Shown here piece by piece: positions 15,001 through 18,000 of a stretch of 48,597 nucleotides of DNA (positions are counted from its first letter, which is position 1; each line of letters begins with the position of its first letter). Made by a program: the position numbers. The stretch comes from a virus (Duplodnaviria > Heunggongvirae > Uroviricota > Caudoviricetes): the IMG/VR virus record IMGVR_UViG_2879742664_000003. The stretch is one strand, 5' to 3'.

Positions 15001-18000
15001 ATGATTACCTGAAGTGGCTGGACCAGTGTCTGGCGCAGTTCTGGCGGGTGCTGAAACCTGCCGGAAGTCTTTACCTGTTCTGTGGTCATCGCCTGGCATC
15101 TGATATCGAAATCATGATGCGTGAACGCTTCAGTGTGCTGAACCATATTATCTGGGCGAAGCCGTCCGGACGCTGGAACGGATGCAACAAGGAAAGCCTG
15201 CGGGCGTATTTCCCCGCCACAGAGCGCATTCTGTTCGCGGAACATTATCAGGGGCCGTATCGTCCGAAAGATGCCGGGTATGCGGCGAAGGGCAGTGCAC
15301 TGAAACAGCATGTGATGGCCCCGCTGATTTCTTACTTTCGTGATGCGCGCGCGGCCCTGGGGATAACGGCAAAACAGATTGCAGATGCCACAGGAAAGAA
15401 AAACATGGTGTCGCACTGGTTCAGTGCCAGTCAGTGGCAGCTACCGAACGAAAGCGATTATCTGAAATTACAGTCGCTGTTTGCCCGGGTGGCAGAAGAG
15501 AAACATCAGCGCGGTGAACTGGAAAAGCCCCACCACCAGCTGGTGGATACGTATACGTCACTGAACCGGCAGTATGTGGAGCTGCAGAGTGAATATAAGC
15601 ATCTGCGGCGGTATTTTGGTGTGACGGCGCAGGTGCCGTACACGGATGTGTGGACACATAAACCGGTGCAGTTCTATCCCGGGAAACATCCGTGCGAAAA
15701 ACCGGCAGAAATGCTGCAGCAGATAATCAGCGCAAGCAGTCGTCCGGGAGACCTGGTTGCAGATTTTTTTTATGGGCTCAGGTTCAACGGTAAAAGCTGC
15801 ACTGGCGCTCGGGCGTCGTGCGATTGGCGTTGAACTGGAGACCGGACGTTTTGAGCAGACAGTCAGGGAAGTTCAGGATTTAATCGTTTGAAACGGATGA
15901 GATTGCAGAATTAATTACGCACCATTATTATTCTGCTCCCGGCCCTTTAGCTCAGTGGTGAGAGCGAGCGACTCATAATCGCCAGGTCGCTGGTTCAAAT
16001 CCAGCAAGGGCCACCATCACATACCGCCATTAGCTCATCAGGAAAGAGCGCCAGCCTTCGAAGCTGGTTGCGCGGAGTTCGGGTCCCCGAAGGCGGTCCA
16101 TTATCTGTATCCTGCGTTGTTAGCTCAGCCGGACAGAGCAATTGCCTTCTAAGCAATCGGTCACTGGTTCGAATCCAGTACAACGCGCCACACTTATTTT
16201 CCCTGGCTCGCTTTTGCGGGCTTTTTTTTAAATGTCTCACAATTCAGGCGGTTGACTGTTGTCTGGTTTGCGGGGAGTTTGTTAAAAGAAACTGGCATGG
16301 TGAATCCCCCTGTGCGGAGGGGCAATCAGCGAGTAGGTATATGGGATAATCGCGGATTCAGGTGCTGGTACTGAATTCACCGGGAGGCACCCGGCACCAT
16401 GCAATGGCACATAGCGCCACTCTCCAGCCCCTCTCCGGAGGGGCTTTTCTGTGCCGGATACATCACAGTTTCTGGAACCTTAGGTACTACAGTATCAGTC
16501 AGGGTGCTATATTTTCAGATGTGATGAAAGCCTGTCAGCAGGCAGGGCGTATCGGAAATGACCCAGTAGAGAAAACGTTGACTCAGATACCGGTGCTGAG
16601 TTACCGGGAAACCGGCATCACATGACCGCTATCCTTCCAGGCCCATCCGCTCCGGTGGGCCTTTTTACTGCAGAAAACAGGTTCCCCGTTAAATGCTATG
16701 TTGCTCACAATTCAGTAAGTTGACAGTTGCCTGTCAGACTGGGCATTTGTTAAAAAAATTTCGCATGGTGAATCCCCCTGAGCGGAGGGGCGACTGGTGA
16801 CGGTATAATCTCTGATTATCAAAACGAGAATGACGCGGGTTTAGTGGCACCGGGCTGAACTCACCGGGAGGCACCCGGCACCATGTGCATGATGATACAG
16901 ATACGCGGCTTTAGCCCCTCTCCGGAGGGGCTTTCTTATGGACAAAAAAAGCCCGCGCTGGGAGACGCGGGCGGCAAGGAATAAACAATAAAACGTGAAG
17001 TAATATTTCAGCTGGCGAATAATACCCCATAGTAATCACTCTGCGCAACTGCGCGGTCTTTTTCGAATTGCGGGCTGTAGTCTCCCTTCTGCCATTGTCC
17101 TGTAACTTCCGGACTTCAGCCTGCTCCTTATCTGACTCACAACATTATCCCGCCCGGGAGGATTCATGGCATTTAAACACTATGACGTGGTCAGGGCGGC
17201 ATCGCCGTCAGACCTTGCGAAACAACTGACACAAAAACTGAAGGAGGGCTGGCAGCCGTTTGGTAGTCCGGTGGCCATAACCCCTTATACCCTGATGCAG
17301 GCGATTGCAGCAGAAGGTGATGTGGTCGTCAGTGGTGCAACTGAGCCGGAGTGGTACTACGTCATCGTACTGGCCGGGCAATCCAATGCCATGGCTTACG
17401 GTGAAGGGCTTCCGCTTCCGGATTCATACGATGCGCCCCATCCGCGCATTAAGCAACTGGCCCGTCGTAACACAGTGACTCCCGGTGGTGAAGTATGCGT
17501 ATTTAACGACATCATTCCTGCTGACCATTGTCTGCATGATGTTCAGGATATGAGTACGATTAACCATCCCCGGGCTGACCTGAGCAAAGGGCAGTACGGC
17601 TGTGTCGGACAGGGCTTACATATTGCCAAAAAACTGCTTCCGTATATCCCTAATAATGCGGGGATCCTGCTGGTACCATGCTGTCGTGGTGGTTCGGCAT
17701 TCACCCAGGGCACGGAGGGGACATTCAGCGAGTCCACGGGAGCCAGTCAGGATTCGGCTCGCTGGGGAGTGGGTAAGCCGTTATATCAGGATCTGCTTTT
17801 CCGCACGAAGGCAGCATTGCAGAAAAACCCGAAAAACGTTTTGCTGGCGATATGCTGGATGCAGGGGGAATTCGATATGACGAATGCCAGTTACGCCCAG
17901 CAGCCAGCAGCATTTCTTGCAATGGTACAGCAGTTCCGTGCTGACCTTGCCGGGCTGGCAGCGCAGTGTCACGGTGGAAGTCCGGCATCAGTCCCCTGGA

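Follow-up and report, generated by a model that had tools for sequence, protein, structure and literature searches.

The DNA considered here is a stretch of 48,597 nucleotides from a virus of the Caudoviricetes (IMG/VR record IMGVR_UViG_2879742664_000003), referred to throughout as the window. It holds a lambdoid prophage, and our subject is a DNA methyltransferase gene that lies in that prophage downstream of the antiterminator gene Q, with an open reading frame (ORF) of 65 codons in between, and directly upstream of three tRNA genes (Table 1). Near its 3′-end the gene contains a run of eight Ts (T8). A sequence-only reading of the window had placed this run at 15764-15771, followed the frame through DFFYGLRF to a stop at 15833, and noted that with seven Ts (T7) the frame would extend to 15891; these particulars proved exact. 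In full, the T8 frame reads ...DLVADFF-YGLRFNGKSCTGARASCDWR*. The methyltransferase frame is lost after Phe310 and a stop follows 20 codons on, leaving the 39 last codons of the gene, as far as 15891, out of frame. Removal of one T restores a protein of 349 residues, which continues as FMGSGSTVKAALALGRRAIGVELE... and ends in ...DFFMGSGSTVKAALALGRRAIGVELETGRFEQTVREVQDLIV*.

The place of the run matters more than the run itself. T8 runs occur four times in the window compared to 3.16 ± 2.53 times in shuffled sequence, so that another such run is nothing unusual. This one is notable because it lies inside the codons of motif I (in T7 form, GAT TTT TTT ATG for D-F-F-M) and because all close relatives outside the lineage described below have one T fewer. 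The earlier reading held that a DPPY methyltransferase here loses the FxGxG motif that binds S-adenosylmethionine (AdoMet), and three kinds of evidence agree on this. First, the methyltransferase frame of the T8 allele runs into DFFYGLRF..., and FMGSGST is found only in the +1 frame. Second, the match to the Pfam family PF01555 (N6_N4_Mtase) covers profile positions 1-191 of 221 for the T8 product (E = 7e-32) and 1-219 of 221 for the T7-restored product. Third, solved structures of beta-class methyltransferases (8urk/9c3u, RsrI, CcrM, MboIIA, and DpnA) align to residues 281-340 of the restored protein, over D-x-F-x-G-S-G-T-T. In M.EcoGII-type enzymes the Rossmann fold is made up of residues 1-134 and 260-349 (PMC11551740). 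The frameshift thus takes out the AdoMet-binding glycine loop together with the final strand and helix elements of that fold. Given the established role of motif I, the T8 product should be catalytically dead. The 3′ remnant is still open in its own frame and has a possible TTG start at 15757.

Table 1. Features of the window that bear on the methyltransferase gene and its surroundings (window positions)
Feature	Position	Strand	Remarks
T8 homopolymer	15764-15771	+	TTTTTTTT; context GCAGA-T8-ATGGGCTC
Frameshifted methyltransferase ORF, 330 aa	14841-15833	+	310 native residues and 20 out-of-frame residues, then stop
Motif IV DPPY, catalytic, intact	14943-14954	+	Residues 35-38 (TDPPYF, residues 34-39); aligned to solved beta-class methyltransferases
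Out-of-frame 3′ remnant	15772-15891	+	Codes for residues 311-349, which comprise MGSGST (motif I) and the end of the Rossmann fold
IS600 end	1-367		Interrupts the prophage integrase gene
Integrase gene, interrupted	355-1188	-	Arm-binding and central domains and the first ~40% of the catalytic domain left (profile 2-73 of 172)
Q antiterminator	13445-14266	+	PF03589 Antiterm, E = 5e-51; upstream of the methyltransferase
Three tRNA genes	15941-16190	+	CAT (tRNA-Ile in RefSeq relatives), Arg-TCG, Arg-TCT; directly downstream of the methyltransferase
NanS-p-like SASA esterase	17166-19019		Followed by holin, lysozyme, Rz, terminase, portal, and tail genes

Judged by its motifs and their order, the gene belongs to the beta-class (DPPY...FxGxG) N6-adenine DNA methyltransferases and, within them, to the M.EcoGI/M.EcoGII family. 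The DPPY catalytic motif is in the N-terminal part, as in that family, and the restored protein is identical to WP_000935509.1 of E. coli 55989 at 348 of 349 residues. Its identity to M.EcoGII, 331/349 (~95%), is approximate, as the M.EcoGII sequence was taken from a copy damaged by optical character recognition in the supplement of PMC11551740. The similarity to the characterized enzymes extends over the full length and includes the target recognition domain (TRD). M.EcoGII is 349 residues long, and M.EcoGI is identical to it at 333 of these (PMC5778455). Both are arranged in the order DPPY, TRD, FxGxG, and methylate adenine in any sequence context. They are prophage-borne and silent in the lysogen, and their constitutive expression is deleterious; in the discussion of the same paper their presumed role is to protect progeny phage DNA (PMC5778455). 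The gene is a common one: it is present in 1,978 of the 5,426 complete E. coli genomes, and the best matches all span 1,050 bases compared to the 1,051 bases of the query. The sequence-only reading had called it an orphan methyltransferase, and indeed no restriction gene adjoins it. As it stands, the T8 allele would be a pseudogene of the M.EcoGI/GII subfamily of PF01555 rather than a functional member.

The T8 allele is not confined to the window. Its exact 330-residue product is on public record from Shigella flexneri CCH060 (WP_005113091.1 / EIQ13189.1), which is the archetype strain of serotype 6; the product was found on 29 contigs and in 56 index blocks. CCH060 and the window are 100% identical over 12,571 bp. 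We examined 16 loci from 15 samples, 10 of them retrieved via the 330-residue protein and 6 via a lineage-specific variant of the downstream esterase. All 16 have T8, and over 4-13 kb each shows at most one further indel. The sources were draft NCBI assemblies, complete genomes, Logan assemblies of SRA runs, and an ENA gut metagenome. Three are complete chromosomes of S. flexneri serotype 6 determined by Illumina plus Nanopore sequencing (PMC11708030): CP162042 and CP162053 from Bangladesh (clade Sf6_VI) and CP160651 from The Gambia (Sf6_VII). The T8 strains differ in their insertion sequence (IS) insertions within the adjacent lysis region, and hence have diverged since T8 arose. The window itself very probably comes from a serotype 6 genome. 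In the two serotype 6 papers, PMC10732043 and PMC11708030, the prophage, methylation, and the pseudogene go unmentioned.

These data bear directly on whether the eighth T is an error of sequencing or assembly, the true sequence being T7 and the gene intact. Indel errors classically arise in homopolymers, and error-rich assemblies are indeed the source of some contigs with a six-T (T6) form of the gene. However, T8 recurs in 15 independent samples from varied projects and technologies, within flanks that are otherwise essentially free of indels, which excludes an error for practical purposes. Moreover, over 13 kb the window and the E. coli prophage closest to it are separated by one indel only, and they agree in the other T8 and A7 runs of that interval, so that the source assembly cannot be considered indel-prone. 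The chance that the run is an artifact is negligible.

One T8 locus stands somewhat apart. A human gut metagenome from Nepal (ENA ERZ4567471) has the identical T8 gene segment (window 13792-16447) in mosaic flanks: on the upstream side the rusA/Q region is divergent, and on the downstream side the esterase region is 82% identical. The locus could be a mosaic prophage made by recombination, an independent T8 event, or an assembly chimera.

The direction of the change can be read from the E. coli relatives. The nearest prophage, in strain TOE17, differs from window positions 10315-23386 (13,072 bp) by five substitutions and one indel, and that indel is the extra T of T8. An exact 87-mer centered on the T7 tract is present in 34 complete E. 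coli records (of those with at least 99% identity), and the corresponding T8 88-mer is in none of the 752 matching records from the 5,426 complete genomes. In IMG/VR, the exact pattern occurs with T7 at 106 loci and with T8 at none. These comparisons show T7 to be the ancestral state.

In the sequence-only reading the homopolymer was offered as a slipped-strand switch, an inactivating mutation, or a sequencing error. The second of these has held up, and the third has been disposed of above by the 15 independent assemblies. A switch would make the T run a contingency tract, with T7 ON and T6 or T8 OFF at high frequency, and would give reversible epigenetic or anti-restriction heterogeneity. The run is certainly mutable, as it has shifted independently in other allele backgrounds (T6, T5C, and a window-type T6). 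But within the serotype 6 lineage its length is invariant (16/16 loci, 15 samples, two continents, at least two clades), and a T6 lineage of E. coli is likewise uniform (8/8 loci). Products of T4, T9, T10, and T11 alleles are absent among ~15 billion proteins, and T9 is absent from IMG/VR. Of the window-type allele, a T5 product was found once, on a single 1.3-kb Logan contig, and a T6 product on nine contigs, several of which are error-rich (5-13 gap openings in 1.5-4.6 kb, with many split neighboring genes). A/T runs of seven or eight are also shorter than classical contingency tracts.

Conservation argues the same way. Among 78 species-level relatives from Enterobacterales, the peptide DFFMGSG is present in 76. 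This upholds the expectation that homologues carry FxGxG at this position, and the peptide is thus conserved where the tract is not. The T run is three long in 64 of the relatives, six in 6, five in 3, two in 3, and seven in only 2, the commonest coding being GAT TTC TTT ATG. The homopolymer therefore has neither the heterogeneity in length among close isolates nor the conservation as DNA among orthologues that mark phasevarions, and is best seen as a side effect of the TTT codons used in the E. coli clade rather than as a maintained device. Since the gene is silent in lysogens (PMC5778455), ON/OFF switching in the lysogen would have no phenotype. With the tract invariant in its lineage, short, and T7 in 2/78 relatives, we hold a phase-variable switch to be highly improbable.

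Only one T7 locus has the esterase variant of the lineage. It differs at eight further places in 3.4 kb, as well as in the tRNA region, and is thus a different prophage variant rather than a revertant.

Frameshifts at the same run were seen in other alleles. A 91.6%-identical DNA allele on E. coli contigs (e.g., GCA_003417915.1 PDAN01000082.1) has T6, a -1 shift, in 8/8 loci, and was found in 119 index blocks. One of these eight encodes a 330-residue product that hinted at T8 in this lineage also; this was rejected, the product being accounted for by T6 plus another indel. In an M.EcoGII-like allele that normally reads GATTTTTTCATG (T6C), one T is lost in 5/8 loci (T5C, GATTTTTCATG). The loss splits off a C-terminal ORF of 39 residues, for which E. 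coli and S. boydii records have an annotation, and some of the assemblies are error-rich. The T6 of the 91.6%-identical allele amounts to another inactivation at this place, fixed in its lineage and independent of the first, and the T run is a mutational hotspot. Each frameshift allele appears fixed in its own lineage, a pattern that fits occasional slippage mutations, neutral or mildly favored, and not rapid reversible switching.

The recurrence hints at repeated loss of a toxic prophage enzyme; it also matches what is generally expected of homopolymers in dispensable genes. A bolder proposal is that the run is a recurrent and selectively favored "off" site, silencing a toxic methylase in independent lineages (T8 in serotype 6, T6 in E. 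coli, T5C in the M.EcoGII-like allele), with transcriptional slippage on T8 yielding a trace of full-length enzyme and low-dose hypermethylation in late transcription. We give this proposal only a slim chance.

The last element of that proposal can be considered separately, namely, that a small fraction of active full-length enzyme is made from the T8 allele. RNA polymerase might slip with the loss of one U, or the ribosome might slip +1 on UUU-UUU-U, and the toxic enzyme would become a low-dose enzyme in late transcription. Transcriptional slippage on T or A runs is established in Shigella (mxiE, T9) and in E. coli, and in some systems a run of eight is enough for partial rescue (PMC1088944). 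The downstream frame is fully open, and since M.EcoGII is deleterious if constitutive (PMC5778455), a lower dose could be tolerated or favored. However, significant slippage in most bacteria begins at a run length of nine (PMC1088944), one more than is present here, and the UAU that follows the run in the A site is not known to stimulate +1 slippage, as far as can be judged. The split arrangement is derived and limited to one clonal lineage, the relatives having one continuous ORF. With excision blocked by the disrupted integrase, there would also be little value in protecting progeny phage DNA. Although a trace of full-length enzyme is possible, nothing indicates programmed slippage, and we consider leaky recoding very unlikely.

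What remains is ordinary decay, and the state of the element is in keeping with it. IS600 interrupts the integrase gene, because of which the prophage should be unable to excise. In sister strains, IS insertions are found among the holin, lysozyme, and Rz genes. Such prophage erosion is typical of Shigella genomes. The methyltransferase gene has the marks of a pseudogene: an intact ORF in close relatives, a lesion shared by descent, and further lesions in the element that carries it. Most probably, then, a +1T frameshift has turned the gene of a non-specific adenine methyltransferase of the M.EcoGI/GII type into a pseudogene, which is fixed in the S. flexneri serotype 6 lineage as part of a decaying lambdoid prophage.

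The likely course of events is as follows. In an ancestor of serotype 6, replication slippage would have added one T to the T7 run of GAT-TTT-TTT-ATG. As a result, translation quits the frame beyond Phe310 and ends 20 codons on, with motif I lost, and the T8 allele has been passed on vertically and unchanged through the clonal lineage. We infer both the mutational mechanism, slippage, and the reason for persistence, which may be that selection was relaxed or that it acted against a toxic enzyme. As the element is excision-defective and eroding, a methylase that protects progeny would have no selective value in it, and leaky expression of the methylase would be harmful.

Some considerations weigh against this account. 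The 3′ remnant is an intact open frame; the mutation could be recent, or could be bypassed at low frequency by slippage. The other structural genes of the prophage in the window appear to be long intact ORFs, so the element is not heavily degraded. The T8 evidence is at the level of assemblies, in which minority T7 sub-populations may be hidden. Finally, the enzyme is presumed dead from its missing motif I.

The practical value of the finding is mostly in annotation. In RefSeq and UniRef, WP_005113091.1 goes by the name "site-specific DNA-methyltransferase [Shigella flexneri]". Elsewhere this DNA has been annotated with no gene called at the position, presumably because it was taken for a pseudogene, so that treatment of the gene is inconsistent. 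The RefSeq protein is what a frameshift has left of a non-specific enzyme, and is almost certainly inactive. T8 also marks the serotype 6 lineage of S. flexneri in a clean and stable way. Otherwise, the case adds one more example to a familiar class of events, ordinary gene decay, and makes no open question newly testable.

The surroundings of the gene deserve some description. The gene order is the same in the relatives and in Shiga toxin (Stx)-converting phages; the latter have stxAB after the tRNA genes; the element in the window is without stx. Gene order and the literature place the methyltransferase in the late (Q-dependent) transcription unit. A scan of 14200-16300 for sigma-70 promoters gave no site, and pR′ was not located. 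The first tRNA gene (15941-16016, + strand) is called Met by ARAGORN on account of its CAT anticodon, and tRNA-Ile in RefSeq relatives at the identical position; it is probably ileZ-like, with a lysidine-modified anticodon, as in Stx phages. Two full-length copies of the STnc100 small RNA family (Rfam RF02076) are present on the + strand at 16266-16456 and 16734-16943 (136 and 165 bits). They sit between the third tRNA gene and the NanS-p-like esterase gene, in what is the stxAB slot of Stx phages.

Two further observations concern more distant parts of the prophage. Between the lysis and terminase genes there is a convergent, overlapping gene pair, 21489-22109 (+) and 22051-23118 (-), with matches to PADLOC "cll" (E = 4e-31) and "PD-Lambda-2_C"/"beta" (E = 6e-32) and to Pfam Beta_protein. 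The pair is a candidate anti-phage defence moron of the prophage. Beside the tail-fibre assembly genes, 46634-47299 (-) encodes a class I AdoMet-dependent methyltransferase (Pfam Methyltransf_12/23/25), also present in E. coli TOE17 (WP_000240999.1) and without a PADLOC match.

It is instructive to compare the gene in the window with four known systems. The first is the pair M.EcoGI and M.EcoGII, both from E. coli O104:H4 C227-11 (Murray et al., NAR 2018, PMC5778455). Like the gene in the window, they encode beta-class proteins of 349 residues with an N-terminal DPPY, a central four-helix TRD and a C-terminal FxGxG, and they lie in the late region of lambdoid prophages, downstream of Q and ahead of the tRNA/stx slot, without a partner restriction enzyme. 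Those enzymes are active when expressed, whereas in the window the frame is broken in motif I, the last 39 residues are not made, and activity is presumed lost.

Phasevarions, the mod and hsd genes with simple-sequence repeats in Haemophilus, Neisseria, and Helicobacter, share with the window a repeat tract within a methyltransferase ORF, the frame being open or closed according to the length of the tract. In the window the run is short (7-8 T), lacks conservation among orthologues, and is invariant in its lineage. Phasevarion regulators are also constitutively expressed by the host, unlike the gene in the window, which is a silent late gene of a prophage.

In the mxiE and spa13 slippage sites of Shigella flexneri (T9/A9; Baranov et al. 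2005, PMC1088944), as in the window, a run parts two overlapping frames of one protein. But here it has eight Ts and not nine, it is a derived and unconserved mutation of a single ORF, and there is no evidence of a fused product.

The fourth comparison, with pseudogene formation and prophage decay in Shigella, brings out no substantive difference. An intact E. coli gene is lost by a small indel, the loss is fixed in a clonal lineage, and the element that carries the gene is disrupted by IS insertions. This is the category to which the gene in the window belongs.

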